Source of the DNA: Psammoneis japonica | Taxonomy: Eukaryota | DNA: 64,000 nucleotides | NCBI GenBank assembly: GCA_008632985.1 | Contig: QPGO01000132.1 | Coordinates: 1 to 64,000, forward strand | Direction of reading: 5' to 3' | Shown here: piece after piece, positions 1 through 58,390 of the stretch | How the letters are laid out: each line of letters starts with the position of its first letter | How positions within the stretch are numbered: position 1 is the stretch's first letter | Notes under the pieces: model-generated | What the model was told of the DNA's origin: nothing | Database searches by the model: none | The model's input: the letters and a program-made list of their open reading frames with translations, nothing else | Made by a program: the position numbers and the translations under genes

Positions 1-1527
1 GGACCTCCACAGAATCCACACATTTTTACACCAAAGCTGTTGTCTTCTGCAATTTGTGCAAAAACAGACTTGACTGTTGTCTGACCAGGTGCATTGTTGC
101 AGACATGTTTTCTGAAATGTGCCTGATCAGATGACAGTCAATCTCATCATTTTTTGCAAAGACACTTTTCAATGTCAGCTGCCCACCCTCAGCCTCTGTG
201 TGTGTTTCCATGTGCCCTCTCATGCAGAGATGTTGCCCTTCTCAGAGAGTGTTTCCCCTGGTCTTGCCAGCCCATTTTGGCCACCTCTGCTGATGGTGCA
301 ACCTTGTTGTGGCATGATGAGCAACACTCTCCAGCAGCAGAAAGAAACTGGCACATGCATGCCTTGTGGCTCACAAGCCAGCTGACTTGTCTTGCAATTT
401 TCTGCCAGCTCAATGCAGTTTCTGTGCAGGCTTCAGTGCAATTCTGCATGCTGCTGAAATGTCCTCCAATGGCCACACAGTTAAATCTCAGAGCTGCTCC
501 TCTTGCTCATGTCCACCCACATTCCTCAACAATCTTTTCTCTCTCTGTTGGCTTGTCAAGTCCCCTTTGCTCTGCTGAGCAGTGAAAGCACTGCATCCAT
601 TGTGTGGCACACACGAGTGTGAAAATGAGTCATCCTTCAACATCATTTGGCAGGCATTCATTTTGTGGGTGCATTGGCGACACTTGTGCAACAGCTCTGG
701 CATTGTTTCTGCATGAGATTGAGGCTTTTTTCTGGCAGCCAACTCATGACATCATCAAGCACCCCTGTTTCTCTCACCCAGCTGCCAGCCCTGGACAACC
801 CATCCCTTCCTTGCTGGCATGTCTCAAGAGCTCCCTGCTTCGAGTGGCATTCTTTCTGCTGCTGTCACACTGCTTGGAGGTGTGAAGTTGGGCCTCTTTT
901 TGACAAGTGCAAGTCTGTGCCTGGTTTGCTTGGCAACCATGTTGCTGTCTCATTTGGTTGAGCAAGATTGGAAACGCCTGATGAGAGGAACCCACTTCGC
1001 AAAAAACATTGCAACAGGATGATTCAGTTCCTCTTGCGCGCGCCATTGACAACCAAACAAAGAGGATGAATTGCAAACCTTCACACCCACATAAAGTCAT
1101 TTTAACAAACATGTTCAATTCTGAACATCGATTGCTCTTTCGAGCTGCCCCCATGCCAACGCCTTCTTGTGTTTCTGAATGACAGACTAAAACTTTGACT
1201 TCTGCCCAGCCAAGTTCTGCCTTTCATTGATGTTCAAAAAATGCAGAAGACAGAAAACCACAGTTAGTTGTGTTTGTTCGTTTGCTGTGAGGTGACCTCA
1301 TGGAATCTACAGCAGCACACATGCAACTCGCAACGACTTCTTGCAAATGAAATTAAAAAGGGCAGTGTCACCAGGGAGAGGGACTTTTGCCGAGGACGGC
1401 AAAATGGTCCGGTGGTCGACACCTGACACCGAAAATGGACACTGGTGAGTGTGACCTCCTGCCAACAACAGATTTGCCTGGCCGCACCCTGGGTGACATC
1501 TCTAGATGCGCTCATTCATGTTCAACC

Positions 1528-2555
1528 ATGGATGAAGAGTCTGATCACGAAAGCATTGAGTCGTCGGCAGCGACTGTCGACGATGTCAAAGAGGGTGCGA
1601 ACTCTAAGAAGTTGGTTGTGCCAAGGACATTAGAGCCCAACGTTTGTGGGCAGATCCATCCCGTGGAGAGCCCCGAGTTGATCGCTGCAGCGCTCCCAGA
1701 GTTTGACAACGAGCTGCGGTTTGTTGAAACCAAACAGAAAGATGCTCTGCTTCAGGCCGAGAGAAAATGTCCTCAACTCCTGACAAAAGAATTAAAGCTC
1801 ATGTTCCTTTGTGCTGAAGTCTTTGACGTTGATGTGAGTCACCCTTCACAGACTTCACAGTGATTTTATGATCGTTGCATCTTCATTTGTTCCTGGTTTC
1901 TGTCTTTCTTCATGCGCAGCGTGCTGCAAAGCGTCACATGCGGCACTGGTCAAAGCGCTTGGACGTTTTTGGTCCTCTGAAGGCTTTCCAACCGCTCACA
2001 TTGCAGGGAGCTCTTTCAGATGACATTGACATCATTTGACCAGGATTTGTCCAACACTGCTTGACCAAAGATGCTTCTGGTTGTCCGCACGCAATGCTGA
2101 ATCCTGCAAAACTCGACCGAAACAAGTGCACTGTAGAGGGCATGGCGCGAGTGTGCTGGCATTTCTTGCATGTGATGAATGAATCCGAAATGGGGCAAAA
2201 GCAAGGGTTGGTCACATTGTTCTGCCTGGATGATCTTGGTGTGAAGCATGTGGATTGCAAATTAATCGGGGGAGTGATCCCTGGCATCCTCGGCATCACG
2301 CCGAACAGATGCAGTGCGATTCACGTTTTTAGACCTCCACCCTTTGTGCAACTGGTGATTCCTTTTCTGCACATGTTTTTGAATGAAAGGATGAAAAAGA
2401 GAGTTGTTTTTCACATTGACTCCAAGCAAAAGATCGCCAACTTGTTAGAGAGAGAATGTGGTTTGCCATTTGACTGCTTGCCAAAAGAACTCGGCGGCAA
2501 GGTGAGACTGTGTGTCGACAGTTGGATGGTTCAGAGACAGGCCGAAGGGAAGTGA
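1528..2555 (+). pseudogene. CRAL-TRIO (Sec14-like) lipid-binding protein, hypermutated paralog of 5727-6990
   Basis: Colinear with the intact gene (HPVESPELIA, AERKCPQLLTK, HVFRPPP, LPKELGG). Same intron position (1834-1919). In-frame TGA near 2037 where the paralog has Arg. Paralog Tyr codons read Cys or His. Confidence 0.9.
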
Positions 2556-2800
2556 ATTAAAAAACATGTGGGCAAATGATGCAGTTTAATTTGTTGTTCT
2601 TAATGGTTGCACTTTAGAACGCCAACTTGTCAGAGGGAGAATGTGGTTTGCCATTTGACTGCTTGCCAAAAGAACTCGGCGGCAAGTTGAGACTGTGCGT
2701 TGATGGTTGGATGGTTCAGACACAGGCCAAAGGGAAGTGAGTTAGAAAATTTGTTGGGAAAGGATGCAGTTTACTTTGCAGTTCTTAACAGTTGCACTTT
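2435..2800 (+). repeat. Tandem duplication of ~181 bp (2435-2615 and 2620-2800) covering the 3' end of the CRAL-TRIO pseudogene
   Basis: cgccaacttgt...gttgcacttt occurs twice with high identity. Confidence 0.9.
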
Positions 2801-5726
2801 CCATCACACTCTCTCTAAAGGCATGAGTTGACAGACATTTGACTGAGTGCTGACTTCGCGAACCAATGTTTTGTCAGTGGCACACTCTTCGAACTGCCCA
2901 GCCAACAACATGCTGCTGAGCCAGCCATTGCTGCAGCCCCATGGAGCCTGGCATTTGAATGACGTGTCCTTTTGCGTGCTTTTGGTGGGATTCACACTGG
3001 CAACAGACAGCCTTCATTTCCCTGCCTCAAGCCAGTGTGTGGTGCTGCACTTTTGAGGAGATTTTGTTCACAACCTGAAGCATTGCAGTCCAATTGTGAT
3101 CTTCTGTTCTCTGCTGGAAAACTTTCTCTTCTTGATTTTTCCATTTTCTAACTTTGTTTTCAGTTGGTGTCAATGACTCTGCCACACCCATGTGCAGCTG
3201 GGGAGAAATGTCCATGATGCAGTCCTGAGCTGCAGCTCATGTTATGACCAGCAAACATCTGTGGTGCACGACTGCAGCTGACAAGTTTTCTGTGGCTGAA
3301 CAACTTCAATCCAAGACCCTAAATCTCAAATCAAACATTTGAGTTCAAAATCCAGAACCCAAAACAGAGCTTGCTGCTTTAAGAGAGCTTGCGCCAAGGC
3401 TCACAAATTGGAGAGAGTGCTGAGAGCACTGCAAAATGCAAGAAACACATGCTCACAAGTGAGCCTCCTGGGAATCCCAAAAATGGCAGCACCAGGTGCG
3501 ACAAACAAGGTCACCACATGTGCCAAAAAGGAATGCCAAGGTTTGCTTGTGACTGGCCCCATGCTCAGTGCACACAACCACATGTCTGTGGCAGCATTGC
3601 AAGCTCACTTTTCACCCAGCTGATGCAACAACTTGCCAACAATGAGTTGGACCTGAGCCGCCCTCAAAAACAGCCTCACTTTTGGTTGCATCCAGAGGCC
3701 AGTTTTTTTGTGCTGGTGCTCATTCACACCATCACAATGCTGCTGCAGTTTTCATTGAATGTTGGCCAACCATGAATCATGTTCTCTTTCTTTTCATTTT
3801 TGCCATCAGCTGGGTGTGCCAGAAACCCAGCTTGCTGTGGGTTGATGGAAAGTGCAGAGCTGGCACAAACCACAGGATGCTGCAACCTGGCGCACAATGG
3901 CACGTTTCTAAAGTTTTCCTCTGAAATGTGGATCTTTGCTTGGGAACCATTTCTCAAGCACATTTGTTGAGCAATGTCAAAGGTCTTACACAGAGCTCTG
4001 CTGCTGCAGTGGTGGGTGCATGCGAGCAGTGGTGGCATGGACAACAACAATTTGGGGGCACCTTGTCTGCAAAGCCCCGGCATTGTCATTGGCTCCAGCT
4101 GCTTGACTTTGATGGCATCTTCCCAGGGTTGTCACCAGAGAGGATGAGAGATGGTGCAGAAGCCCTCACATGCCAATTTTGGGTTGTGCTCTCACACTGA
4201 CTGGTGCGCAAGACCCCACTGCCTCTGTTTTCACAGCAGCAGGAAAGGCGCAGTTTTGCCAAGAGGAGATTGACAAGGATGTGTGCAGCATTCTTCACTG
4301 CAACAAAGCACTGGCCCACGCAATTTGCCAAAACAAACATTTGCATCTGAGACAGTGATGCACATGGCATCTCTTGCATTTTCTTGGCTTGCCAACTCTG
4401 GGATCAAGGAAGCATGCAAGCCGGCCATCTCCCGCCCACTTGCGCTCACAAGGAGAACAAGGTGCTTTTCCTCTTTGATTTGCACCATTTTTTGCAGATG
4501 TGCCACGTGAAATTCCTGCTCAATCTTCAAAGATCAGGCACTTGAGCAACTTGTCTCGCAGCACCGATGACTGGGCTCTGCCGCAGCACAACCATCGCAT
4601 TGTTTTGCACCACGAACATGAGTGCACAAACAAGGGCACACCAAATTTTGCTCACACTGCTCCCCAGATGAGTGCTGCTTGAATTTTGCCCAGCAATGTG
4701 TGTTCAGGCAACAAAGTGAGCCACGGCTCTTGAGCCAGCTCTCGCTGTCTGTGTGGCTGCTGCGGCTTGTACAGCCAAAGTCTCCTGTCATTGATTTTGC
4801 TTTGGCTGGCTCTGGCAGTGTTGAAGAACATGAACCATCAATCGCTGACCATGTTGGGTGCAATTGAGGCACACTTGCTGGGTGTTGCAATGTGCGGCAA
4901 TCACTCCAACAATCTCCATGATTTGGTGATGCGTGCACCTCGAAAGGCAGCCTGCCCAGCCGGCTGACTTTGTGCCAAATTTTGAGAAAGAAAAGAGCTC
5001 ACCAAACTGTTGTGACAAACACGCACCTGTGGACGTCCAAGGCAGAAACGAGAAAACTGGGTTGGACTGAAAATCACAACCAAGCTTTGAAATGATGAGT
5101 GTTGGCAGCTGCCAAAGCTTTTTCGTCACGTTCTGTTCGCGGCGCGCGGTGCATTCGAAAATTTGATAATGCCCTGGGCCACCATCACACTCTCCTCTCC
5201 ACCACAACCACACATTCAACAAATGTTGAAAAGTGAGCGCGAGTTCCGCGAATCCCGTAAGGTTTATTCCCGCCAAAATTTTTTGATATTTGATTTATCT
5301 TTATTGTTTGTGCGTTAATATATTAATCTTCAGAGGTAGCACTATAGTGACGTTTATCAAAGTTAATTTAGCTGAAAATGTATATGAAATCCGTTGTAAG
5401 CAACAAATTTCTAACAGGTATCATGCGATTTTACATTCAAATTTCATATGTCACACATGAAAACTCAAATTTGATTCACAATCAATGATACCGACTTTAT
5501 GATAAATATTAGAGTGCAAAGTATTGGATAATTTTCGTTAACAAACTTGTATCAGAAATGAGAGTTTACTCATGTACGTTTCATAAGATTGGATAAACGG
5601 CGTTTACGTGCATGTGAAATTTCGCAAAAAATCTCGCAAAAACAAACAACACAAACGACGTGTTCTCGTCATACACAGTGTTGCATGAACGAGAACGCGG
5701 GTAGTTCCCACTTTTAGAACCCCACC

Positions 5727-6990
5727 ATGCCTCCCAACAAACCTGAAAGAACGTTAAAGAGAGCAGCTTCACTTGGAAGTGGAGTTGTATCCGATGATGG
5801 TAAAACAATAGAGTGGTCATGGACTGCAGAAGAAGGAAGCTCGGGAGTCACCAAGCAGAACGATGAGCCACTAGTAAACAACAACATACTGCTCTTCCCT
5901 CCAACACAAGATTTCCCCCTCCGCGTCCTGAGTGATGTTTCTTATCTTAATGATTCGTCAGTTTCTAGTCAGAATGACATGTCTTCCATCACAGATTCGG
6001 ATCGAGACAGCTCCATCGACGAAGGCAAGCCCTACATTGAGTCTCCTAGGAGTGCCAAATTGGTGGTACCGAGGTGCAGAAAGAATGACGTTTATGGGCA
6101 AAGCCATCCTTTGGAGAGTCCCGAGTTGATCGCTACAGCGCAGGACGAGTTTGAGAAAACGTTGCGTTTTGTCAGGCGGGAGAGAAGTGCCTATGCTCTT
6201 CGTCAGGCAGAGAAGAACTGTCCCGAACTGCTCACCAAAAAGTTCAAGCTCTTGTTCCTTCGTTCCGAGCGTTTTAACATTGATGTAAGTCACGAGCCCA
6301 ATCCTGGTGTTGACTTTGTTAGATCGTGGCTCACTCCTTGCTTTCTCTCTTTCTAACGAATAGCGTGCTGTAAAGCGCTATCTCACGTACTGGGACAGGC
6401 GCTTGGACATCTTCGGTCCCAAGAAGGCGTACCAACCGCTCACGTTGCAGGGAGCTCTTTCAGAAGACATTGACACTATAAGACTGGGATTCGTCCGAAT
6501 CTGTTTCGATGCCGACCTTTCGGGACGACCGTACTTTTTGTTGGATCCTTCAAAACTGGATCGAAAGAGCTACACCGCCGAGAGCATGTCGCGAGTGTGC
6601 TGGTACTTCTTGCACGTAGCGAACGAATCGGAAGCGGCCCAGAAGCGAGGTGTCATGTTATTGTGGTACCTGGAAGAATTCCGCATGAAGCATTTGGATC
6701 ACAAATTTGCCAAAATGGTTCTCCCGTCTATTCAAAGTGCCATTCCAATTCGGCTGAGTGCCGTGCACGTTTTTCGACCTCCGCCCGTGGTGAGAGTCAT
6801 CATTCCCTTTTTATACCTTTTTGTGATTGAAAGGATCAAAAAGCGAATTTTGTTTCACTTCGGATCCCAAGACGCAGTCGCCAAGTTAGCGGTGAAGAAG
6901 TACGGACTGGCTTTGCCGAAGGAACTCGGTGGCAAGCAGTGTCTTTGTATCGATCGTTGGGTGGAACAGCGACTAGCGGAAGGCAAGTAA
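5727..6990 (+). CDS. CRAL-TRIO (Sec14-like) domain protein, 2 exons (5727-6284, 6364-6990)
   Basis: GT-AG intron 6285-6363 joins the frames. Motifs FLRSERFNID-RAVKRYLTYWDRR, PIRLSAVHVFRPP, LPKELGG. Confidence 0.85.
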
Positions 6991-22780: not shown

Positions 22781-22815
22781 AACCACTGGGGAACACAGCG
22801 GCGAAGCAGTCGTAT

Positions 22816-34011: not shown

Positions 34012-37000
34012 CTTGGCCGATGAAATGATCACGCACTGGCATGTGGCAACAAGGTGGAGGCAGAAATGGTGATGTGGAGACAGTGAAAAATGGCACACAT
34101 GATTCTCAATGAGTCATTGCAACATTGGTGTGCCAAACTTGCAACCAGAGGTTGGCCTTTCATCACATGACAACAATTTTTTGCAACATTTTGACAAATT
34201 GTCATCATGCAAATCTGCACATTTTTAACATTTCGTGCACTCTGATGACCGTGGCATGTCAAAATGTTCCTTTTCCATTGGCCTGAGCAAAGAGCTCCGT
34301 CTCATGGTGCTGTCGGGTTGGATGGGTTGGTCAACATGATGTGGATTGTGCACATGAAGAGCACAAGCCTTGTGAAATCTTGGGGCTGCTGCTGAGCCAT
34401 CTGGTTTGCTTTCCCGTGGCAAATTGCATCCCAGCCGTGACAAAGGCCTGCAAGTGTGATGCCAATGAAGACCGTGACTTGGATGTGACATTTTGCAAGA
34501 AATTTCAGGGGTTGAATCCTTGGCGCTTTTGTGAGAATCCCGACAAGCATCTGCCATGCACTCACACAGGTTTGAGTCATCTGCAACAGCTTGTTGACAG
34601 TGGGACATGTTGCCTGTCAAGCAGGATGCATCAAAATGCACCCTCTGTCAGCAAGAGTGGGAGTGGTTCTCCACATGCAAGCTTGCTCTGACATTTGATG
34701 ATGGGGACAAGGTTGGTCACAGCATTGTCAAATTCATCATCAAATCAATTCTTCAATGGCACCAGAAGGATCCTGAGAGACGCTGTTGGAATCAAGCATT
34801 GGCACCCGGCTGCAGCAACAAAGGTTGCTCTGACTGTGAAGCCTGCAAAGCATGGCACATGTTGCTGGAAATGGCGGGAAAATTCCGCCCCCAGCTCATT
34901 CATTAATTTTGTTACATTGGCGAGCAACATGTGACCCGTTGTGTCAATGAAGACAACTCAAATGTAGATGTGGGCTGAAGGGTTTGGCCCTCTGTCATCC
35001 AGACCTTCTGAAGGTTGTTGAAAAAGTCGAGTGTTGGATTGCCACAGGCTTCAACAGAAAAAGAGGCAATTTTGTGAGTGCACAAACTCCTCCACACTCA
35101 GAGGACATCATTTTTGGTTTGTCCAGGTGTGAAACAATGTTGTCGAAGTGTGTGTGCACAATGTGCAGTGCATGATCAAAGTGGCGCAAGGTTCCACCTG
35201 CAGTGGAGAGCTGGAGCCAACCTGCAGAACACACATGTGGGCTGAAAAACAATGCTGCAAGTGCACCACAGAAGGACTCAACAAAACTGTGATCAGCATC
35301 CTTCCCTTGCAAACACAAACACATTGCTGGCAAGCTCAGGTGCTGATTTTGGCACCACTGGAAATGTGCCAGCCAACAGCAGCAGTCGCGGTGCCAGCTG
35401 CAGCATGGATTAGATGCAACAAAGAAAATTCTTTTCAAGAGGATCTCTGTCCAGAGAATCCTGGTGCACACTTTTGTCAGAAGCCAGTTTGAAGACAGAA
35501 CAATGAGCTCATTTTCTCAACCAGGGACATTGGGCAGTTTGTTGGTTTGACTGGAGAAAAAAAAACTCAGCAATGTGGCCAATGGACCCACTCAGATGAA
35601 AACTTGCTTGGCCAGCAAAGATGGCAAGTGCACTTCTCACTTCTGCCCCTTTGCCTCCAGCAGCAGCTGTGCTTGGCCAACTGCTGCCCATGTTGTGCTG
35701 GCTTTCAGCATTGACTTTTGCAGTTGCTTTCCTGTGCCAGTGCATGTTCATTTTGTGTTGGAAACAAAGCCAGCAAAATCAGCTGTGCACACAGCCATCC
35801 AACAGCAACACAACAGCTCTCACTCAGCAAAACATGCACATTCTTGCCAAATTCATTGCACACAATGGGGGGGAGCACTGATGGGGTTTGTTCTGAGGAC
35901 GGAGGTTTGAGGCAGAGATGTGGTCATTGAAACACATCCATCCACTGAGTTGTTTGATGGCTGTGCCCCACAAAATTCACCTGCTCACTGCTTGTCAGTT
36001 GTTGATCCTCCAAGAATGCTCCAAGACCAAAATGACACCAGCCTGCCCACCAACCATGTCACTTCAATGAGTGAGCACTCATTTCCGCCCACATGCTTGC
36101 ACTTCTAAGTTTCTGAAAGAGTTGATGCTCAGTGCACAATGCATGGTGCTGCATGGGCCACACAGCTGGCCCCACCTTTTGCTTTCAATCACTGCATTGT
36201 CGCCTCATTCTTTCTGCTCCAAGCAGCAACATTTTGTGCAAAAGTTGTGTTTCACAAGCCAGGATCATCCACAGGTGTGGGCCCCAACAAGAAGAAATCC
36301 ATGACATGCCTCTCAAAAAGTTGGGTCAAAAGTTCTGAGAAATGCAGCTCTTGAACTGGTTCATGAAGACTCAAAGGATGAGTGCACTTTGCTGCTTTAA
36401 CAAGCTTTTCTAGATAAAATGATGATGCAGTGGATCTGACTTTGCCAAAAGGGGCAAAGAAATTCTGTTGCATGCACAAAACCTTTCCTCCAGCTCCCCA
36501 TGGTCAACCAGACAATCAAGCTCAAAATGCAACTGAAGAAGATGTGTGAAGCAGTCTGTTGAGTGCTTGTTGGGTTGAAGAAGTCAGATCTGCCAACAAC
36601 AACCACCAACTTCTGCAGTTGAGACAAACAAGCTGCAAGAAGCTTGGGAAGCATCTTGCTGATGAGCAGGTGGAGCAAGAACTTCTTGCTTGTGGTGCTG
36701 ACAAGGACAAGAAGGATCCAACAAATCACATTGTGAGCATCAACCAGAGCCACCCAGATCCAAAGCCCCATCACCAGGAATGGACTGGTGGCTCATCAAA
36801 GAAGAAAGTGGCCATTGTCAGTTTCCCAGACTGGAGATGTTTTCCACATTTTGAAATGCTGGACATTGGTTGGGTGGAGCTGAAGTTGCTGCAGAAGCAT
36901 GGCATGCCAATTGTGCCTCACAGATTTCATTGATGGCAGGATGTGCATCACAGATTGGATTGCTTTTGGGCAGTGGAACGTCAGTCTGTTCGCTCAAGTG

Positions 37001-42308: not shown

Positions 42309-42334
42309 CTCTCTCTCTCTCTCTCTCTCTCTCT
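42309..42334. repeat. (CT)n microsatellite
   Basis: About 13 CT units. Confidence 0.9.
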
Positions 42335-46851: not shown

Positions 46852-47127
46852 TGACAGAAATTGAAGGCAAATGGCAAGAATTCAAACAATGGCTCCTTGC
46901 TGCTGTCTAAACAGCAGATGAGTCTCCGCTCAGAGACCGTTGCAGGAGCCGAAAGACGTGCAAGTCGGTGCAATCGGGCTGCTGTCATCATTCTTGTGAG
47001 CCTTGTGGCTCGAAAGCAAACTACATCGCGTGCGAACGCGCAGAACTGAAGCACACAAAACTGTGTGCGGCAAACTAAACAGTGCGCGACATGTTGCGCG
47101 CACCCAAATCCTGTTCAAATCCTGTCA
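46852..47127 (-). repeat. 3' LTR
   Basis: Ungapped match to 53660-53935. Adjacent to a PPT-like tggggag on the minus strand. Confidence 0.96.
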
Positions 47128-47142
47128 CTCCCCAGTTTGCTT

Positions 47143-50100
47143 GAGGAGCCACAGAAACAGATTCAACTTCGGATGGAATGAAGTTCCAGAACATGAGGGG
47201 GCGGAGAAGGTCCCAGACTTGGGAGCAACCCCAATGCTTGCTGAGAATGTCAGCAGGGTTGTGGGAGCCTTCGATGAAGTGGAGCTCAAGGCAACCAGAG
47301 GCAATTGCCTCACGCACATGGTGGAATGACAGTGCAGTGTGTCGCTTGTGTAACTTGGAGTGCGGGATGGTGGCACTGTCTACAACCGACTTGTTGTCAC
47401 CGAACATGTAACTGATGTCACGGATCTGGACGCCAAGGCAGCGCAGGGTGATGCGCAGGTCGACAATCTGCTCGACACAAGTCCTTGCGGCAACAAATTC
47501 AGACCCGTGAGTCGCAGTCTCCACGGTGGCTTGCTTCTTAGAGAACCAATCAGCCGGGAATTTGTTGAGGAAGTGGAGCATTCCCATGACAGAGCGTCTG
47601 GTGAGCATGCAATGGTGCAAGTTTGCATCGACGTAGTGGGTGGCAGTGACGAACTTGCCAAGGGGCGGTGGAGCGTCCTTCGGGATCATCTCTTCTGCTT
47701 TGCCGCACACGGAATGCATCCATTCATGGGCCGGAGCAGGGAGATCCGAGTGGTCGGGCTCTTCCGTGCGAACGTGGAGAGCGCCGTGTTGCATCTTGGA
47801 GAGGTGCCCACAGACGCGTTTGGCACGATCCAAGTGGCCTTGACGGGGCGCAGCTTGGAAGCTAGAGAGTGACATGACGGCCGTGGTGATGTCAATTCGA
47901 CCAAGGGACACTGCCCATTGGAGTGAACCAACAAGAGACTGGAACTTGTGAATGCCATCGGGCCCCAGCAATTCGGAAGTGTCCAGTTCGGAGTGGTCAC
48001 CCTTCTCCAGAGGTGACAGGGCGTTGGTGGCAGGTTTCTCCCCAAACAGTCGGGTGCAGCTGTCGACCATGCGCTCGATGTACTTGCGCGGAGACAGGCA
48101 CAAGGTGCCGTCGGGATCCCGGGAAAAGTCGCAGCCCAGATGGAACTCAATCGGTCCCGCACCCTTGAGCTTGAACTTGTGCTTTTCCATGAGAGTGTCG
48201 ACAAAAGATTGAGGGTCCTTCATGGCAATGGCGAGGTCATCCACACAAACGGCAATGCATTCGCAGTGGTTGCCGTTCCTGTGCATCCAAATGTCGGGTT
48301 CGGCATGGCAGGGGAAGAAACCTTCAGCTCGCAGGCAGTCGGCGAAGCGCTCATGCCAGCGGAGGCCAGAGCTGCGCAGTCCATGCAGGGCCTTGTGGAT
48401 GACAAGGATGTGGCCTTCGAGTTTGCCAAATTCAGGTCCGGCTGCAATGTAGAGCTTCTCCTTGGTGGTGGCTTCAAGGTGGGCATTGCCAATGTCGGTG
48501 GCCCATGTCTCCAACTCATTGAGTTCAGCCAGGAAAATCATCAGCCGAAGGCCACGGAGGGAGACTGCTCCGGAGCAGACACTGTCGATGGGTGCGTCCG
48601 TGAGGTGCCCATCGGCTGCGAGACGTGCCTTGTGGCGACCGTCGTGTTTCACGTCGCACACCAGGTGCACTCGGATCTTCTTGTGTCCCGCAGGAGGAGT
48701 GGAAGACTCGGAGGGCCCGCAGTCATGGAAGACTTCGCATTCCTCGAGTTGGTCCATCTCGAGATTAGTTGCGTCTCCCCATTTGCGGTTGCCGTTGCGT
48801 TCGTCTGGTGACATGGCGTGTTTGCAGTTCCGGGGAACTTCGCATCCGTGCTTGCAGCGAGGTGCAGTGCGGAAGGAGCGAAGCTTGGCTTGGTTGGCCA
48901 TGCAGAATGGCTTCTTCTGGCGCCTCGCGATGGTGCGGAACCACTTCCAGCCATCAGTGTCGAGAAGTCCGTTCTCTCGTGCATGGATGGCGCAGGTGAC
49001 AGGGTCGTCCTTGGCGATGATGGCAAGAGGCTCGGACGTGATCTCCCCACTTTCCCATTCAAGCACAATGTTGTAGCTTGAGCCTTTCCAGGTTGGGTCA
49101 TGGGGCTTCAGAGGTCCTTCGTGTGACACAATGCATCGAAATTTCCAAACAGCAGTGTCTTTGTCTTCTTGCTCAATGTGATTCATGATGTCGTTGTAGG
49201 CCAGGACTTCCTCACATTCGTCGTTGTTGACAGAGCAGACGAACTTAGTGAGCTCGGGATTGCCATTCACTTTCCATTCGTGGTCTTCAACGGCCTTGAC
49301 GATGCAAGCTCTGTGGCGTTGTCCATCCTCTTGTGGCTGCATGAGGAAGGTGCATCCGATGGTGTCTTGCGGATCAAAAACTGGCATCTTGGGTGTCCTG
49401 ATCTCCCCATCAGGTGAATCGACGGGGTTGTCATCATGGCGAGATTTGATGATGGGTTCAGGTGGCTCCCCATCAGGAGGATCAAGACGCAGGTTTCGAG
49501 CGGCAGGATCAGTGGCAGCGGATTGTACGTTGGACCGGCAGAGGATCTTCTGAGTCTCGTCAGAGAGGATCTTGAAGGTCATCTGGTGGCCAACGTGCTC
49601 AGCAATGCCAACAAAGCGTCCACGCAACTCACGGGATTCGGACGGCCAATCGGAGTCATCGAGGTGGAAGCACACAGGTTCCCACCAGTGAAAGCGAAGC
49701 AATGGGCTGATGTCCGGGGTGGAGCCAGTGAGAGTCTCGAGGGGCGTGTGCCAGTGGAGACTTGGGGACGCTGCATGGTTGAGCACGAAGCACACGTGCA
49801 TGAGCGCCAGCAGCCATGTGTGGGCAGGCGAACCGAAACGATCCATGACAGTGTTTGCCACGCGCTTCACGGTCTGGTGTTGACGTTCGGCAAAGTTTTG
49901 GTGTTGCTGGTGAGGCTCACTTTGCCAGCTGGAGACAAAGAGGGCTCGTAGGATCCCGAGCACCTTGTTGCTGATCTCAACTTGAGCACGGTCGCCAATG
50001 AGTTTGGATGGAGCACCACGCTCACGGATCTGATCCTCGAGTGTGTTGACAAACTCTTTGTCCGTTTTGGTGCCACAGACGTCAGTGACGGTAGACTCGG

Positions 50101-52744
50101 TGCCAACAAACAGTTGGGCGCTGGTGCAACCAGAGTCGACGGCCGGGGTGTCGGCACAAACGGTGTCAGTGGCGACAGGCTCGTTGTGGCGGTGCACATT
50201 AAGGGCGGGGTTGGGCGATTTGTGGGCCTTCCCAAGGTGTGCACCGGCGGGCATGCGGGCGCACTGCGTGGTGCAGTCGAAAGTACGACAAACCGCATCG
50301 GCAGGTTGGAAGCCAAAGTGAGGCCAAAGAGACTCGAAGGGGGGGTCCTTGGGCTGCACAGTGCGCTCCGGGGGCGGAACGTCGTCGTCCTTGGGGTCAA
50401 TCGCGTGTAGATGACACTCGTGGAACACGTCGTCATTCGGAATGAGATGGTCATCGAGGGCGGACGCGTGATCGGCAGACAAGGAGGCGGACATGATGGT
50501 CTTGTTGACGACGACACGATGACGGCAGTTGCCGCATTCGTCAAACAGGTTGGCAGTGGGATCGTCCTGCAGGTCAGAGATCGCATCGCACCACTGGTCG
50601 TCGTCAGTGACAGAGTGATCAAGGACGGAAGGATCCCATGTGTCATCACCGGTGAGGATGACATGGGGCAGGGTGTCCCATTCGGCGTCAGTGCAAGGTC
50701 GCATGGCAACATGAGGCAGGCCGCCCTTGATGTCAATTGGGATGACACAGCCATCAGGGGTGGCAATGCGTTGCAAGCCGTTGGGCACCTTGACAGAGCG
50801 ATCGTTGACATCCTGTTTGTGCCATTCGAGCTGGCCGCAGGAATGGATGGTCTCGCCCTTTCCCGTGCATGCGTGCTGATGGAGGATGGCGATGACGGGG
50901 CCATGCTGTGTCTCAATGACGGCACCAGTGGTGACAACAGGGATGTCCACCAATTGATGGTCGTCAATGCCCTGAACGTCGACTTGGCGAGAGGTGCATG
51001 CAACAACGCGAACGTCGTCGCCAGCAATGCCGCTGTTGGCCCCACGATCGACCAGAGCACCAGTGCGTGTGGAGCGATGAGCAGAGGCAGAGCAAATGAC
51101 ATTGTGGTCATCAACGCGGTGGCAAGTGCGGCCGTTAAGTTCTGTGTCATCGGCAGGAGCGGGCGAGGTAGAGGGAGCGGCGGATGGCCCTGTTCGACTG
51201 GCGTTGGGGGCTTGGTTAGGAGACAACAGGCGTTGCAGATCACCGGGTGGCAGTGGCTTGCGTTTGGTGAGGTGCGCCAGGATGGGATCATCTGAAGTGG
51301 CACCCACATTTGGAGTGGGGTCACCAGAGTCAGCAGGAGTCGTGTTGGACAAGTTGACATCACCGTCACTCCCAAGGTGTTGGTCGTGAAGGTTGGCCGT
51401 AACGGACTCATGGCAGTTGCTGGCTCGCGGGTTGCGGGGAGGCAGATGAGAATGCTCAAGGATGATCGCCTTGGAGGAATGGGGCAACAAATCCCAAATC
51501 CGTTGGTGATCGGGAGGGAGACGTTTCCATTGGTCACCGGTGAGGCTGGGACCGCGGGTGCAGGCAGCATTGGCCTGAAGGACGTCAATGTCGCTGTCGA
51601 TGTCACAGAACACATCATCGGACGGTTCCTCGGAGTGGACGTCGTGTGCGTGTGTGGCACATCAGGGAGCTCGAGGTGTCGTCTTGGGTTGAAATGCACT
51701 GTTGCAATGAGCCGCTGCAGAGAGGATCAAGCCACAATGTTGATCGCATGTGAGGCTCTTGCCACTCTGCGTGCGATGCTGATCAGCTTGGTTCTTGACA
51801 GCACGGAGTTCCTCGACAGGATGCATGGCATTCTCGAGCATGACGCGCTTCTGTTCTTCAGAGAAGTGGTCACTGGCCGGGATGAGTGCCTCGCACTTGC
51901 GCAACTGATCTTGCCAATGAAGAATGAACCCGTGGGTCGGACCTTTCCAAGTGCCATCACCAAGACGTGCGGTGGCAAGGTGCGTGAGCAAGGTGGAGGA
52001 CTCGACAGATGCGCGGGTGGAGGCAAGCGCATGCTCGGACAAGGCGCGGCAGACGGTCTGGGCGTCAGAAGACCCCACATTTTTGTGAATGAGAGCCTTG
52101 CCCTTGTCGGTGAGAAGGATGCGTTCGAAGACGGCGAACATGTGCTTTTGCTGTTCAGCAAAGAGCAGTTTGTCTTCGGGGCTGGTCGGTTTGTACGACA
52201 AGTCTAGGGTGCACTTGACGTCTTGGGCACGGGCTTGTGCCACAAGTGAGGTGTGCCAAGTGTGCCACTGCTTGTCGGATTTGAGGGCCGTGAAAGCGGT
52301 GGGGTCACGCTTGATGCCTTGCTTGAAGTCTCGCACTGGGTCGCGTGCCTTGGTCGGGTTGGTGACATGCAGAGGTGCGAGGGGCGAGCTGCCGACGGAC
52401 ACAGAAGACATGCAGTCGGGGCTGAGGCGGCAGGCAAGGAACTCCTCATGCATGAACAATGAGGAGTCATTGGCAACATCGAGACCTTTGTGTGCTTTGA
52501 CAATGTACAGACTAACTAGAGCTGCTAACATGTTCTTACAACCGCGGGGCAAAGGGATCACATTGGTGCCGTTGTCGCACTCAAGCGAGTCGATTTGGGA
52601 CGGCATGAACGTGAACAGTTCTTGGCACGAGTCCGTGCCGTCATGGGTCAAAGCCAAACAAAGAGGGCTTCCAGCACCTTGGGCAAGCACGGTTCCAACA
52701 ACGTGCTCGAAACCATCGGTTTGTTGCTGACAAGTGAGAACCAT
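47143..52744 (-). pseudogene. Copia gag-pol polyprotein (protease, integrase, RT, RNase H)
   Basis: ALVDRGAN (PR); VATDTV, QQHQNFAER (IN); HKARL, DIGNA, KAL.GLRSSG, .VDDL (RT); VDAN, GSEF, GDNKSV, NPADILSK (RH). The gag and pol ORFs share one frame, separated by a single TGA at 51662-51664. Confidence 0.93.
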
Positions 52745-53659
52745 GACAGACAAAAGCGGTGTCAGGACAAGCGATTCTTGTTGGGATGCGAAGGTAGACT
52801 TGAAACTTGGGTGAGAAAGGACTTGACTTGAAACAAACTTGACTTGAAATCTTGAACTGCCTTAAAATCAGAAGTCGCCGGGCTGTGCCATCCCATTCGT
52901 TGTCAAGTGCCAAACTTCCCATCCGGTCCGTAGAGTTGTGCCGGCACGTCCGAACCCGCAGCTGGCGGTGCTTTGGGTTGCTTACGAGCGGAGCAGCGGG
53001 TTGCAAACCCCTGCAGGTGAGCTGACCAGAGGTGGACAAGACCCCCGAACCATTCTCATTTTATGTCGGTTGGATTTCCCGATCAGGCTGGCCAGTTGAT
53101 GCAGGCATCAGGCGCTGTGGACGAACGAACAAACGCGGGAAAACACCCTCGCCCCAACGCAGGCTGCAATCACGGCTGCTTGCTCTCACAGTCGTCCTCG
53201 TGGACCTGGTGGAACTGCAGAGCACCAGCAGTCCAGGGCAGATCAGGTGCAATGGACTCGGCGTGCTTGTAGAGTGGCAGCAAAGCCGCAGTCCAAAGAG
53301 TGGGTTCAAGTCCTTGGCCGTGGAGACATGCACAGATCCTTGAACATGTGGGGTTCTTGACCGTTGACCGTTGAATGGGCACATCAAGGGATGAGGATCA
53401 AGGGTGGACTTGGACATGACCGTTGAATGCATGTCTTCAGCGACAAAAAGCAGCACAATCAATCCAGACATGCAGCGGCAAGGAGACTTGACGGTGACGT
53501 TAACTTCCTGCCGATGCCCTGGTGTTGAATGCGCGCAGACTTGCCGATGTGCGTAGAACACATGCGGAGGTCCACGCAGAATTGAAGTGGCGTCGTCGGC
53601 AAATCAACGACGACGACGGCGGTTGCTCAATGGGTTGACAATGAGCAAGACTGTTGATC

Positions 53660-53935
53660 TGACAGAAATTGAAGGCAAATGGCAAGAATTCAAACAATGA
53701 CTCCTTGCTGCTGTCTAAATGGCAGATGAGTCTCCGCTCAGAGACCGTCACAGGAGCCGAAAGACGTGTGAGTCGGCACAATCGGGCTGCTGTTGTCATT
53801 CTTGTGAGCCTTGTGGCTCGAAAGCAAACTGCATCGCGCGCGAACGCGCGGAACCAAAGCACACAAAACTGTGCGCGGCAAACTGAACAGCGCGCGACAT
53901 GTCGCACGCACCCAAATCCTGTTCAAATCCTGTCA
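53660..53935 (-). repeat. 5' LTR
   Basis: Ungapped match to 46852-47127. Confidence 0.96.
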
Positions 53936-55319
53936 TTGAATGTCTTTCATCTTGCAAGCGAAGCAGACAGGCTTGGGATTTTTGTCGCACAGAGTGCAGC
54001 AGAGTGCCACAAGGAACAGCAATGTTTTTTTCCCTGCACCAGGTGAGCCAACTGCAATCTGTCTTTGCTTTCGATGACTCTTGGTCAGTTCCTTGAGTGC
54101 ACCACACATTTCCCTCCGAATGTGAATGGCCCCATTGGGGAAAAAGTGTTCCTTGATTCCCTCCGGATGAGGGGCAAGGGGTGCAAGAAATGCTCCGATG
54201 TTGATGCACCCTCCCTCCAGTGGGCCTGTGGTGGCACACAAGCTGGCGTCAGCACAGTCAAGCGCCGCTTTTCCATGCTGGATTGATGACAACGACGTCA
54301 TTGCCAACGCTGGTCATGGCACCTTGGTCGTCCTCTGGGGGGCATCTTCGGAAGTGAGACTGTCAAAGAAAGTTGCATGGAATTTGTGCCAAAACAGTCT
54401 GTCAATCAGTGCAGTTGGGCATTTGGGACCTCTGGACAGATCCTGCATGTTTTCTTGTGCATGCAAATTGCACTGGAAAACCCCCCAAACGCACTGGCGA
54501 TCAGACCGCCTTCGATGATCTCACTTCCAAAGACGCCCCCCACCAACTCCCTCTAGCTGGCAGAGAGCAGGGCCCCAGAGCAGTGGAGAGCAGAGTTTGA
54601 GACAGTGTGGGGGAAGTCTCCAGTCAGCGCGCTGCTGGCTGAAGAAAATTGTGCAGTAGAATTTGCACTGAAAGTTAGGAGTTTTGGTGAACGCAGGACA
54701 GACTCGACGTCTTTTGCGCAGGCGGGCGGGCAGGGCCTAAAAATTGCACTGCAATTACAAAACCCCCCAAACGCACTGATGGTCAGACTTTCTTCAGCCA
54801 GCAGCTGGCTGGAGGAGTCGTCCCCCGCACTCGGTATGTTTGATTCATTCAGGACGAGTGCTCTGTATGATGCTCGACAATGAGCAAAGTCTGGAGTCAG
54901 GCAGCGTGTCGACTGGCAAGAGGTTGTGTCGGAAGTCTCCTTTGTTTCCTGTCATGAGAATGAGATCAAAAATTTTCCAAAAGATTGTTCTCTCAACGTC
55001 TTCGATTGCGAACCCGAGATTCCATCATGTGCACCCTGCGATAATTGGCCACCACAGGAAGACAATGCGGACAGAAGAAAGAAAAGAAAGGAATAGTCAG
55101 GCCACAGCTTGTCATGGGATGACGCGAGCGTTTTACAAAGTCTCACTGATAAAATAAGAGGAAAGCGAAGCAAAGATCGCGGTGGAGAAGCAAACATCGC
55201 AGACACGAATTGTGGGTTCGCAAAATTTGCACGAGTCAACAATCGCATAAAATCTACATCAGCAATGACACGACATACGATCCACTGAACATCCATTGTC
55301 TACAGCTGTCCCCTTGACC

Positions 55320-56627: not shown

Positions 56628-56989
56628 TATTTCGTTGAGAGAATTACCCCGAGAAAACCGTTTTATTCCATGCATCAGTACATACCTTGAATACATAATA
56701 CGCAATACGGTTGCAACCGTTGACATGAATGTAAAATTGAATGCTCGTTTCGACCGGCCTGCTTTAGAGCGGGCTACAGAAGCGTGACACGTATTTGCCG
56801 AGAAAGTAACTCGGCCCCGATAGAACAAAAGAGAAAGTAGAGACAGAAAAATAGACTTATGTCAATTACTATTAAGGTTTAAACAACTCTCTAGAGAGTT
56901 GTACGAGCCGAACTCTCTGCATACGATAGTTCTGGCTGACTCCCGCATTAAACGCTAAATTATTCCCGCTTGTCGTTCCGTCCTTTTTA

Positions 56990-57433
56990 TTATTCAAAGA
57001 ATTCAAATTCGACCAGAACAATCTTGGAATTTCCATCATAGAAGGTCAGATAATTTCCATCAACCGTGATCTTTGTCATCTCGGGCAAATGGGAGGTCAG
57101 GTAGTTCTCCATTGGACGTTGCTCCGGCGGAGGCAGCATTTTGGTACTCGCCACGGGTCCCACCTCAATGTCACCCTGGTCATTCAACACTGTAAACTCC
57201 GTCGACATCCTATTGGCAACCCTCGTCTTGATGGTATACTTGTTCTCTCCGTCTGCTTTGTCGATAAAGAACGAGACACCACCGTTCGTTTTCGTCACGG
57301 GAATCAAATCCGCGCGTTCTTGGTTGTTTTCAAAGGCCGTCTGGATTTTCCAAACTCCTTCATACTGAGCCATGGATGATGCTATGCAGATCGCTATCAA
57401 GAGAAAAAGGGACCGTAGGGGAGACGCTGTCAT
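56990..57433 (-). CDS. Secreted META-domain (HslJ-like) protein
   Basis: Signal peptide. Motifs EGVWKI, ANRM, VGPVASTKMLPP, ENYL...L. Confidence 0.7.
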   Translation of the reverse strand: MTASPLRSLFLLIAICIASSMAQYEGVWKIQTAFENNQERADLIPVTKTNGGVSFFIDKADGENKYTIKTRVANRMSTEFTVLNDQGDIEVGPVASTKMLPPPEQRPMENYLTSHLPEMTKITVDGNYLTFYDGNSKIVLVEFEFFE

Positions 57434-57719
57434 GGTTGTAGTTTTCGTTGTATGCTTCGTTGTTCGTTTCGTACTTCTTTTTTCTTGCTGTTGTCGGGCT
57501 CTTTTTATTTCTGGAGCGAGGCGCGAACGAGGTGGAGCGAGGAGCGAGGCGGAGGGGTCTTCCAGTAAGTTCGGCTCTCCGTACCCCGTCGTACATTTTC
57601 TACAGAGAACGTCATCACTTAGGAAAGACAATACTGTATGTTGTACATACTGCACTCTACAGTACATACACAGAACAATATGAGAGTCATCTTTCTCCGC
57701 TCCTTATTGCGTGCGTGCT

Positions 57720-58390
57720 TGGTTGACTTTTTGTCGATTGGGTTGGTCATTTCTGACTGGTCACAGTCATTCAATCGAAAAAGTCGTGCAGGTGGGTTCA
57801 GTGCCACAAGCGGTGTGGCGGACGCTGTTGTGCTGCAATCGATGGACTGTTGAGACTGACAAGTCATGATGTCCCAGAGGTTGTTGTGCATTGAAGAGCC
57901 AAAGCTCAATGACTGCTGAGCAGCAAGCTGCTTGCGACAAAGCAAGAGCAGCATGCCTGACCCGCTTTTTTGTGCTGCGATGCTCTTCTCCCCACACGCT
58001 GCCTCTGACCAGGTGTCTCTGGAGAAATGTGCTAGTTGTGTGCCAAGAGATCTGTCAGACCCATGTTTTTCACCACAAAAACCATGAGACTCATGGCCAA
58101 AAAGAGCTGCCTCGCCATTGGGGCTCTGCTCTTGCTTTTGTGTGCTTGTTTTGGCACAGCACCAATTTTTTTTTTGGCCACTGGAAGTTGCTCTTTTTGG
58201 CTGGCTGCCCCTGCTGTGCTGCAGCGAGAAAACCTGGAGATGATGCTGGGTGTGTGTTGTGCATTCGGCGTTGTTCCTCGGTTGGACCAACAGCGTTCAC
58301 TTGGCTGAGCATCGGGTGTTCAGTGCTCCACTCTCCCACACACAATCGAAGAGCCAAACGGTTCTGTGTTCGAGCTCCAAGCTCTCAAAA
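57720..58390. other. Short TpA-depleted insert between divergent genes
   Basis: About 670 bp with about one TA, flanked by TA-rich sequence (57630-57710 and >58490). Confidence 0.75.

Follow-up and report, generated by a model that had tools for sequence, protein, structure and literature searches.

Features of the window

The 64-kb window (the whole stretch of diatom DNA that was analyzed) alternates between gene regions of normal composition and blocks with hardly any TA. Its diatom origin is supported by an arginase search, in which every hit with a species name belongs to a diatom. Over its full length the observed-to-expected (o/e) ratios are 0.30 for TA, 0.69 for CG, 1.45 for TG and 1.44 for CA. 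Segmentation with 300-nt windows delimited six low-TA blocks, 35.9 of the 64 kb, with TpA o/e of 0.06–0.10 against 0.4–0.75 elsewhere. The first block (1–5200; 33 TA; o/e of 0.10 for TA and 0.36 for CG) contains a hypermutated CRAL/TRIO gene copy; the next two, 7501–9500 (10 TA; o/e 0.08 and 0.29) and 21301–22800 (6 TA; o/e 0.06 and 0.25), are without a recognizable domain. The largest block, 27301–40900 (54 TA; o/e 0.06 and 0.37), carries a transposase-like open frame, a Copia element is nested within 41901–54700 (63 TA; TA o/e 0.09), and a small block, 57701–58500 (about 57705–58490; 5 TA, one of them internal; TA o/e 0.10), lies between two genes. CpG o/e varies from 0.25 to 0.61 across the blocks. 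The interval 13101–14100 (TA o/e 0.16) was not counted as a block; it has normal CpG (1.11) and is situated within a Deltex-like gene.

The Ty1/Copia LTR retrotransposon occupies 7084 bp on the minus strand (46852..53935; PF07727, E 2.3e-22); it has a match to the RVT_2 reverse transcriptase, 276-nt direct LTRs with TG..CA ends (46852–47127 and 53660–53935, 92% identical) and a 5-bp target-site duplication, TTGAA (46847–46851 and 53936–53940). Its polyprotein frame (47075..52861, minus strand; 1929 codons) has one internal and one terminal stop, and 1653 homologs were found at E ≤ 1e-10. The second recognized element is a 920-aa open frame on the minus strand (29512..32271) related to Plavaka/KDZ-type DNA transposases. 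A Pfam scan of this frame itself gave no match; relatives at E ≤ 0.001 number 991, all eight tested match PF18759 (six above the cut-off), and its language-model neighbours are Plavaka clusters.

The mutated CRAL/TRIO copy (1357..2552, plus strand; PF00650, E 2.6e-12 for 2040–2552) has an intact paralog at 5718..6990 (plus strand), a gene with normal TA in normal-composition DNA which served as reference; the intron region of the pair is alignable. A fragment at 36550..36930 (plus strand), in a depleted block, resembles an eIF2D winged helix (PF25304, E 5.2e-5, 23.8 bits versus a cut-off of 27) and probably derives from a gene that was captured or has decayed. Among 146 ORFs scanned against Pfam the CRAL_TRIO copy alone exceeded the curated cut-off, and most of the block sequence is without a recognizable domain or origin.

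Composition of the TA-depleted blocks

The depletion goes far beyond a mild bias. The longest TA-free run extends over 2052 nt (42753–44805); with TA as dense as in gene regions (38.1 per kb), such a run would have a probability of ∼e^-78. Block edges are sharp, with the transition completed within ∼100 nt; e.g. from 5258 on TA occurs every ∼10 nt, while directly before this point it is present only at 4770 and 5167. From gene regions to blocks, TA decreases from 38.1 to 4.8 per kb and CG from 56.8 to 28.8 per kb, while TG+CA increases from 147.4 to 206.1 per kb; the density of all pyrimidine-purine (YR) steps stays constant (242.2 versus 239.7 per kb). In terms of mass balance, the lost TpA and CpG of the blocks are recovered as TpG/CpA, with GC content nearly the same (0.50 in blocks versus 0.475). 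The original prediction had described sharply bounded, TA-poor and TG/CA-rich blocks covering about half of the window and holding every recognized transposon; the segmentation agrees with this, and both recognized transposons (Copia and the Plavaka-like transposase) are located in depleted blocks.

Direction, timing and context of the substitutions

Polarity of the change was assessed by comparison with relatives. The Copia polyprotein contains 0.42% Tyr, 3.43% Cys and 5.81% His; in 71 full-length homologs Tyr content averages 3.83%, with a minimum of 2.86%. In an alignment with 40 homologs, of 39 conserved Tyr columns 20 have become Cys, 12 His and two Phe, with five kept, while each of the non-Tyr residue classes was 72–100% kept; 14 of the 58 conserved Arg columns now hold His, Cys, Gln or Trp. 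The reverse transcriptase motif reads CVDD where YVDD is expected. The same is seen in the Plavaka-like frame: Tyr makes up 0.33% versus a mean of 2.96% in relatives, none of seven conserved Tyr was kept, and CCC stands where a 62%-identical relative has YYY.

At the nucleotide level, 5–9% of TA dinucleotides present in four metagenome relatives of the Copia element were kept in the window; 45 of 88, 59 of 97, 54 of 79 and 47 of 75 of the relatives' TA, respectively, are now CA or TG. The relatives are neither TA-poor nor Tyr-poor, so that the outcome named in the original prediction as speaking against it did not occur: in 70 metagenome Copia loci TA o/e was 0.33–1.02, none of the 70 had TA o/e <0.3 or was poor in Tyr, and YVDD was present wherever the motif could be located. 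In the pairwise alignment of the CRAL/TRIO genes, the intact copy has 27 TA, and not one was kept in the mutated copy; 23 are now TG (13) or CA (10), while other dinucleotides were 27–61% kept.

The two LTRs, identical at the time of insertion, now differ at 21 positions over 276 nt; 20 of these fall at YR steps and one elsewhere. Differences at YR steps comprise six TG/CA doublets, two TA/TG and six CG/TG-or-CA sites, i.e. 14 positions at TA-derived sites and six at CpG. Dinucleotides common to both LTRs include 16 CG but a single TA, so that ∼87% or more of the LTR TA sites were converted. Since the LTRs have diverged at TA sites, the change occurred after integration; TpA conversion also outpaces both CpG decay and background substitution by a wide margin.

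Variation between family copies was seen in contigs of an accurate-read run, X1 (platform unrecorded), which may be the data set used to assemble or polish the window. We placed 14305 of its contigs on the window, nearly all on Copia. Transitions account for 359 of the 409 variant places, in agreement with the substitution spectrum expected. Among 40 variant rows listed, seven are TG/CA doublets whose marginals demand 0–21% TA in other copies; at four single variant sites TA makes up 15–90% of depth. The three polarity controls of the original prediction were all reproduced and extended. Thus Tyr columns, the paralog pair, metagenome relatives and the LTR pair uphold TA as the ancestral state and the claimed direction, TA>TG/CA (A:T>G:C, on either strand), and by its direction the change could not have come from the C>T processes, RIP and 5mC decay.

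The conversion follows a flanking-base rule: RTA/TAY sites were erased and YTAR sites partly retained. Given the presupposition that blocks began with the tetranucleotide make-up of gene regions, surviving contexts (per 10 kb, blocks versus genes) are TTAA, 9.2 versus 19.9, and CTAG, 4.2 versus 13.2; erased contexts are ATAT, 0.3 versus 26.0, ATAC|GTAT, 0.3 versus 29.9, and GTAC, 1.7 versus 34.2. From genes to blocks, the A_G context gained CA (+26.6) and not TG (−2.3), and the C_C context gained mainly TG (+52.6; CA +7.6), directions in keeping with the rule. Copia Tyr codons preceded by a purine have become Cys in six cases and His in eight, those preceded by a pyrimidine 14 and four, respectively (Fisher p = 0.068); the agreement of this direction test with the motif is only suggestive. 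TG and CA outcomes are interleaved along Copia (21 runs versus 16.0 ± 2.6 expected).

Proposed hypermutation process

We conclude that transposon-derived or otherwise inserted DNA in this genome has probably undergone fast, near-saturating, context-specific TpA->TpG/CpA hypermutation after integration. In the scenario we propose, an inserted sequence (transposon-derived or other) becomes subject to A:T>G:C change at TpA on either strand; conversion favours 5′-TAY-3′ (5′-RTA-3′ on the opposite strand), spares 5′-YTAR-3′ and ends within ∼100 nt of the block edge. Proteins are ruined by Tyr>Cys/His and similar changes, such as YVDD -> CVDD in the Copia reverse transcriptase. The TA->TG/CA change is unable to generate stop codons; on the contrary, TAA and TAG vanish, and dead elements therefore retain very long open frames, such as the 1929-codon Copia frame with its one internal stop. 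A slower second process, ordinary CpG>TpG/CpA decay, wears down the same blocks afterwards; old blocks are thus short of both palindromic YR steps, and the young Copia mainly of TpA.

As the signature is strand-symmetric, A>G at TAY and T>C at RTA are not distinguishable. The most economical chemistry would be an enzyme that deaminates adenine at TpA in DNA, leaving hypoxanthine, with G fixed at the next replication and silent or foreign DNA being targeted; among the candidate chemistries it is the one we favour, though with the odds somewhat against it. The trigger may be repetition, small RNA, the state of the chromatin or the act of insertion, and the process may be either a selected defence or a side effect of silent chromatin. 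More tentatively still, one could speculate that this diatom has an adenine editor of its own, directed to DNA at 5′-TAY-3′ by chromatin or by insertion and serving as a stop-free defence against transposons. We know of no precedent for natural adenine deamination in chromosomal DNA. Deaminase and TET/JBP domains were sought in 25 + 146 ORFs of the window and none was found, as anticipated in the original prediction, which placed no candidate enzyme here.

Alternative explanations

The strongest competitor, which we still consider unlikely, places the chemistry on the thymine side: in silent transposon DNA an enzymatically modified T at TpA (TET/JBP-type 5-hydroxymethyl- or 5-formyluracil) would now and then pair with G, yielding T>C at 5′-RTA-3′, and hypermutation would follow incidentally from a silencing mark, with no dedicated editor at work. 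The strand-symmetric signature is compatible with this, and CpG decay in the blocks suits heavily marked silent chromatin. On the other hand, 5hmU opposite A is, to our knowledge, not strongly mutagenic; the extent of LTR conversion next to one non-YR change in 276 nt suggests a speed closer to direct editing than to infrequent mispairing; scanned window ORFs showed no TET/JBP domain, and nothing in our analysis points to such a mark in diatoms. In dinoflagellates, according to excerpts of PMC11572971, a TET/JBP homolog makes 5hmU that is enriched at repeats and tied to transposon silencing, and an older report had T in TA and TC as preferred; the TA preference was not reproduced in the base-resolution map of another dinoflagellate, Breviolum, as presented in an excerpt of PMC11071213. 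Dinoflagellate marking is similar to the process described here in that, within a related supergroup of algae, a modification directed to transposons falls on the T of A:T pairs; it differs in being an epigenetic mark for which no mutational footprint has been reported, and it is not known in diatoms.

Could the depleted sequence be an artefact, with modified silent DNA making a basecaller or polymerase misread TpA while the true sequence keeps TA? The DNA of the blocks is probably modified, their CpG decay being suggestive of 5mC, and the window sequence was matched in one sample and study alone, perhaps the assembly's own source. Still, this is highly improbable. X1 contigs (again with the proviso that X1 may be the assembly's own data) reproduce the depleted stretch 42345–46877 with one difference in 4533 nt, and three block borders are bridged by such contigs. 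Word depth in this single-copy stretch is 68.9, compared with 56–63 in flanking genes; noisy long reads would be unable to yield k-mer contigs matching at this gene-like depth (about 57–69). A misread modified base predicts strand-specific read populations at half depth each, with TG read from one strand and TA or CA from its complement, and column consensus would leave about a quarter TA and about a quarter CG; we saw TA at 2–10% of expectation and CG depleted. Moreover, TG and CA outcomes alternate from site to site, the remaining TA obeys the flanking-base rule, and the same site can be TA, TG or CA in different family copies. Depth and strand logic thus argue that the blocks are true genomic DNA.

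Editing prior to integration is equally hard to sustain: ADAR-like A-to-I editing of transposon RNA, or editing of cDNA while it is reverse-transcribed, would be inherited by new insertions. The Copia family is highly abundant, the A>G change next to a 5′ U/T resembles what ADAR prefers, and at some sites most copies share an outcome (e.g. CA in 71% of depth at 47727–47728), as would be expected had copies multiplied once mutated. However, the LTRs of one insertion differ at eight TA-derived sites (six TG/CA doublets and two TA/TG), and both directions appear on the coding strand (Tyr>Cys in 20 columns, Tyr>His in 12), yet the genomic RNA strand alone is copied. The same signature is found in the DNA-transposase element, in the intron-bearing gene copy and in unidentifiable single-copy DNA. 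As the source of the bulk signal, pre-integration editing, ADAR RNA hyper-editing included, is largely refuted.

Finally, native composition or selection (gene regions having gained TA, or elements avoiding it because of their codon usage, the stability of their RNA or a horizontal origin) has next to no chance of being right and is refuted by the polarity tests: TA is indeed under-represented in most genomes, gene regions of this window included, but the Copia relatives have ordinary TA, normal Tyr and YVDD, the alterations extend to non-coding LTRs, to the intron region and to one stop codon (TAA->TGA), the two LTRs became different at TA sites once inserted, and o/e of 0.06–0.10 with 2-kb TA-free runs exceeds any compositional bias known to us.

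Comparison with known systems

The proposed post-integration TpA hypermutation has much in common with fungal RIP (by the cytosine-methyltransferase-like enzymes RID/DIM-2): near-saturating transitions in transposon DNA, sharp borders, a dinucleotide rule, action after integration, dead elements, and cytosine-methylation-type decay joining in or following. RIP, however, needs an enzyme of the RID/DNMT4 type, takes place ahead of meiosis and is a C>T process, mainly CpA>TpA, through which TpA arises, GC drops and stop codons appear, whereas here TpA is destroyed, GC is near-constant, stop codons are impossible and the host is a diatom, not a fungus. RIP also hits both duplicates; here the paralog at 5718–6990 was spared while the copy at 1357–2552 was mutated, and the depleted stretch 42345–46877 is single-copy at ≥85% likeness in run X1, a limit that leaves room for old diverged copies. 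A RIP-style trigger requiring both copies is therefore not supported: of the repeat targeting originally claimed, the presence of recognized transposons in the blocks stood, and repetition as the trigger was not borne out, given the untouched CRAL_TRIO paralog and the 4.5-kb single-copy stretch. RIP indices are quoted in an excerpt of PMC7884421, and DNMT4 relatives occur in many diatoms according to an excerpt of PMC9998398.

Deamination of 5mC explains the CpG part of the signal alone (CpG loss in blocks, the altered Arg columns, six CG/TG-or-CA LTR differences); TpA loss is impossible by this route, and CpG change is the slower one here, as the 16 CG versus one TA in both LTRs indicate. APOBEC-type editing was rejected: it would give strand-coordinated C>U (G>A on the opposite strand), whereas the excess here falls on A:T pairs, with the two strands interleaved. 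ADAR, which hyper-edits double-stranded RNA, and the tRNA adenosine deaminases TadA/ADAT, adenine base editors included, likewise yield A>G and prefer a U/T on the 5′ side. TadA acts on U33-A34-C35 and early base editors prefer YAC, to which the TAY motif may be compared by analogy. These are RNA enzymes, with laboratory-evolved DNA versions, unlike a process that, after integration, affects both strands of chromosomal DNA and elements without an RNA intermediate. Very-short-patch repair in E. coli, with its T:G>C:G bias, is thought to turn CTAG into CCAG/CTGG, a TA>CA/TG outcome reached by another route; it is genome-wide, weak, CTAG-specific and acts on an evolutionary time scale, whereas the change described here is local and saturating, with CTAG among the best-protected sites. 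A literature search found no description of such TpA-erasing hypermutation.

Implications

The effect would be RIP-like with the opposite chemistry. If the proposed process is real, one of the major groups among marine primary producers harbours a mutator directed at transposons, with a chemistry (A:T>G:C at TpA) that none of the compared systems produces, and a second hypermutation defence has evolved independently alongside RIP. It would also imply that adenine or thymine in chromosomal DNA is the substrate of some natural enzyme, one of interest to genome editing; should it be an adenine editor, it would be the first native counterpart to laboratory adenine base editors and the mechanistic mirror image of RIP. 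There are practical consequences as well: dead elements with long frames risk being called intact genes, and dating by LTR divergence would be badly inflated, with 20 of 21 differences at hypermutable YR steps.

Loss of TpA at constant pyrimidine-purine content offers a simple signature for searching other genomes. In public data, three transposase relatives are nearly without tyrosine, a hint that the system may operate in other element families or genomes too. Two Tyr-free relatives have one-sided outcomes (eight His and no Cys in one, seven Cys and one His in the other), at odds with the interleaved outcomes in Copia.

Composition of the TA-depleted blocks

Over the whole window the observed/expected (o/e) ratios were 0.30 for TA, 1.45 for TG, 1.44 for CA and 0.69 for CG. 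We saw that the TA deficit was concentrated, not diffuse: six blocks (1–5200, 7501–9500, 21301–22800, 27301–40900, 41901–54700 and 57701–58500; 35.9 of 64 kb in sum) had TA o/e within 0.06–0.10, versus 0.4–0.75 in the gene regions, i.e. the remaining DNA of normal composition. Block borders were sharp to ∼100 nt or better. The longest TA-free run extended over 2052 nt; at the TA density of gene regions its probability is ∼e^-78. From gene regions to blocks, TA fell from 38.1 to 4.8 per kb and CG from 56.8 to 28.8 per kb, with TG + CA rising from 147.4 to 206.1 per kb; the total of pyrimidine–purine (YR) steps stayed constant (242.2 versus 239.7 per kb), therefore the entire compositional difference consists of transitions at YR steps. 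Within blocks, TA and CG, both self-complementary steps, are drained into TG/CA.

Segment 13101–14100 (TA o/e 0.16) was excluded as a seventh block; its CpG ratio was normal (1.11) and its composition that of ordinary coding sequence. It is high in AA/TT and lies inside a Deltex-like RING/DTC gene (10811–13951, − strand), and looks like coding composition, not hypermutation. For the three small blocks, a search of the edges for terminal repeats and target-site duplications gave only short, chance-level repeats, and an origin of these blocks as discrete insertions is thus only putative.

With TAA and TAG nearly gone, abnormally long open frames occur in the blocks whichever of the six frames is read; the blocks overlap 158 stop-free frames of at least 90 aa, and the dead Copia element has one internal stop in 1929 codons. 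Over-prediction by gene callers is to be expected in such DNA.

TA as the ancestral state

Four independent comparisons (with Copia proteins, a Plavaka-like frame, a CRAL/TRIO gene pair and metagenome DNA) indicate that TA is the ancestral state. The original prediction had polarized the change as TA to TG or CA from Tyr codons, a gene-paralog pair and LTR/repeat pairs, and all of these agreed.

The Copia polyprotein (47075–52861, − strand) was aligned with 40 of 71 full-length homologs. At the 39 columns with Tyr in at least 80% of homologs the window copy has 5 Tyr, 20 Cys, 12 His and 2 Phe; residue classes other than Tyr were 72–100% kept in the same alignment. Its Tyr content is 0.42% versus a mean of 3.83% (minimum 2.86%) in homologs, and the reverse transcriptase motif reads CVDD versus YVDD in relatives. 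A CpG component is visible at Arg, where 14 of 58 conserved columns are now His, Cys, Gln or Trp. At the DNA level, comparison of Copia with four metagenome relatives showed TA kept at 5–9%, and TA changed to CA or TG at 45 of 88, 59 of 97, 54 of 79 and 47 of 75 sites.

For the Plavaka-like 920-aa frame (29512–32271, − strand) a word-index protein search gave one match and an exhaustive search 991 relatives; the Plavaka transposase domain was matched by all eight relatives tested, six of them above cut-off. None of the seven conserved Tyr columns was kept (3 Cys, 2 His, 1 Phe, 1 Arg), and YYY of a 62%-identical relative appears as CCC.

The CRAL/TRIO copy at 1357–2552 (+ strand), in block 1–5200, was compared with the intact gene, which lies at a distance of 4.4 kb (5718–6990, + strand). 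Not one of the 27 TA of the intact copy was kept (13 became TG and 10 CA), versus 27–61% of other dinucleotides; at the intron 5′ site GTAAG became GTGAG, and TGA replaced the stop codon TAA. The mutated copy has its 3′-end tandemly duplicated (2431–2800; 185 bp, two copies, 88% identical).

Timing and sequence context of the change

The LTRs of the Copia element (46852–53935) measure 276 nt and have TG..CA ends; an intact 5-bp duplication of the target site, TTGAA, flanks the element. LTRs of one insertion are identical at integration. The pair now differs at 21 positions: 12 in six TG/CA doublets, 2 TA/TG, 6 CG versus TG/CA and 1 elsewhere. A TG/CA doublet requires that a TA or CG once shared by the two LTRs has changed once in each; with 16 CG still in common and only 6 different, CG double hits are expected well under once, and TA is therefore the source of the doublets. 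Assuming concordant and discordant conversions to be of similar frequency, about 87% or more of LTR TA sites were converted, the figures for CG and for the remaining positions being ∼14% and 0.4% (rough estimates from one pair). This one LTR pair places the TpA process after insertion and indicates that it runs far faster than either CpG decay or background change. Young Copia DNA is low in TA (o/e 0.05–0.1) and has CpG o/e of 0.75–0.94 because the TpA process outpaces CpG decay; in other blocks, for example at 35001–37000 and 43001–45000, both TA and CpG are lost.

The Copia family is clearly very abundant in X1, a sequencing run: 14305 X1 contigs fell on the 20-kb stretch 41001–61000, almost all on Copia, with a summed Copia depth of 58000–114000 that is not a copy number. 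Transitions made up 359 of 409 variant places on this stretch. Among the 40 of 432 variant rows listed there were at least seven adjacent TG/CA doublets, whose marginals require 0–21% TA in other copies, four sites with TA in 15–90% of depth where the window has TG/CA, and 12 sites with CG in 88–100% of depth where the window has TG/CA. Copia copies show TA, TG or CA at the same site, which is what conversion in each copy independently would produce; most CpG losses occur in the window's copy alone.

Leftover TA varied with flanking bases. The following frequencies per 10 kb (blocks/gene regions) presuppose, when read as context rates, gene-region composition as the blocks' starting state: TTAA 9.2/19.9; CTAA and TTAG 5.9/14.4; CTAG 4.2/13.2; GTAC 1.7/34.2; ATAG and CTAT 0.4/18.7; ATAC and GTAT 0.3/29.9; ATAT 0.3/26.0. 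By hand calculation, the ten TA contexts were fitted by a one-flank additive model, in which a purine before T makes the change fast, equivalent to a pyrimidine after A on the other strand. The direction of change was consistent with it: CA +26.6 and TG −2.3 in the A_G context, TG +52.6 and CA +7.6 in the C_C context. TA remaining in the LTRs is CTA in every case, the family site at 90% TA is CTAG, and an independent direction test on Tyr codons agrees weakly with the motif (p = 0.068).

Mechanism and alternatives

The process that produced the blocks acts on DNA after integration, changes A:T to G:C specifically at TpA and follows a flanking-base rule; it is limited to DNA that was inserted or derives from transposons, and CpG decay comes after it at a slower rate. 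An enzyme probably carries out the TpA change; the window yielded no candidate for it. The simplest route would be deamination of adenine to hypoxanthine at 5′-TAY-3′ on either strand, with hypoxanthine fixed as G upon replication; the U-A-C target of TadA/ADAT appears to resemble this motif. We propose adenine as the substrate tentatively. A route through thymine is inseparable from it by sequence, as an A>G change equals T>C when read on the complementary strand. The thymine-side route, the main rival, appears rather unlikely. In dinoflagellates repeats are marked by 5hmU made by TET/JBP, and an old report of TA/TC preference is mentioned in a passage of PMC11572971; however, according to a passage of PMC11071213, this preference was not reproduced in Breviolum.

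One could also suppose that a modified base was misread, the true sequence still being TA; this is very improbable. Read support comes from one sample and study, of which X1 is the largest run, and contigs, not raw reads, were compared; X1 is possibly the window's own assembly data, and its agreement with the window is not independent-platform confirmation. X1 contigs had word depth of 57–69, and contigs built from 31-mers at such depth would need accurate reads. The depleted segment 42345–46877 was covered by one 4569-nt contig with a single difference, at depth 68.9 (flanking genes 56–63), and further contigs ran across the borders of blocks at about 41.9, 54.7 and 57.7/58.4 kb. Two arguments do not depend on platform. 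Misreading predicts strand-specific read populations at half depth, whereas one contig at full depth was observed; and a column-wise consensus would keep about one-quarter TA and one-quarter CG, whereas TA is at 2–10% of expectation, CG is low and the outcome switches between TG and CA from one site to the next.

For most of the signal, RNA or cDNA editing prior to integration is excluded, as the LTRs differ, both directions occur on the coding strand and non-retro sequences are affected. Polymerase-eta errors have the motif WA>WG, and this type was rejected with AA and TT not depleted (78.7 and 76.0 versus 81.6 and 83.3 per kb); so was GC-biased gene conversion, with GC barely altered and the loss confined to TpA.

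Among the other runs, X2 (filed as 'DNA?') resembles a transcriptome: a contig skips 58791–58890, fitting a GT..AG intron at 58792–58891 (100 nt). X2 gave no cover on 42335–54340 or 57676–58342, which is no evidence that the blocks are silent. X3 (1439 records) covered only the Copia element within 41001–61000, at depth 2.5–29, by contigs 90–99% like the window's copy.

Relation to known systems

We know of no previously described signature of TA>TG/CA transposon hypermutation, and keyword searches of open-access full texts, which cannot prove absence, found no description of it. Fungal RIP is alike in effect, but its defining direction of change and mutation of both duplicates were not seen here. 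The features that define 5mC decay were absent from the TpA component, and those of APOBEC and ADAR editing were absent as well. Diatoms often have RID-related DNMT4 genes, of unknown function according to a passage of PMC9998398; a cytosine enzyme such as DNMT4 cannot produce the TA to TG/CA change. Passages of PMC9258296, PMC7884421 and PMC12543289 have subject matter unrelated to this signature.

Sequences affected

Recognizable block contents were Copia, the Plavaka-like transposase, a gene copy and a sub-threshold eIF2D-like fragment; no domain was found in block sequence beyond these. Repetition, the trigger originally predicted, is not supported: only one CRAL_TRIO paralog is mutated, and segment 42345–46877, though depleted, is single-copy in X1 at ≥85% likeness.

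Hypermutation implies that intact relatives should not be equally poor in TA and Tyr, and this was borne out: none of 70 metagenome Copia loci had TA o/e below 0.3 (range 0.33–1.02) and none was Tyr-poor; the signature is thus not inherent to this lineage of elements. In one of the 70 loci (L040) the polyprotein is normal and Tyr-rich, and a 1-kb segment downstream of it (2601–3600) has TA o/e of 0.18.

The signature recurs in public data: three of 151 Plavaka-like relatives (P0179, P0262 and P0210; 1127–1290 aa) contain 0.08–0.09% Tyr, at most one Tyr each, with Tyr columns filled by His or Cys. Of 13 Tyr columns, 8 are His and none Cys in one such relative, and 7 are Cys and 1 is His in another. 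These proteins suggest that strand-biased versions of this hypermutation act on other elements or in other genomes. Unlike these one-sided cases, the window's Copia has TG and CA outcomes interleaved (21 runs versus 16.0 ± 2.6 expected).

The DNA is that of a diatom: named arginase matches came from diatoms only, at 59–68% identity, with no close sequenced relative at the locus. A 452-aa open frame without Pfam match (55269–56627) contains Pro/Thr/Glu-rich tandem repeats of 30 and 63 nt at 56214–56471.
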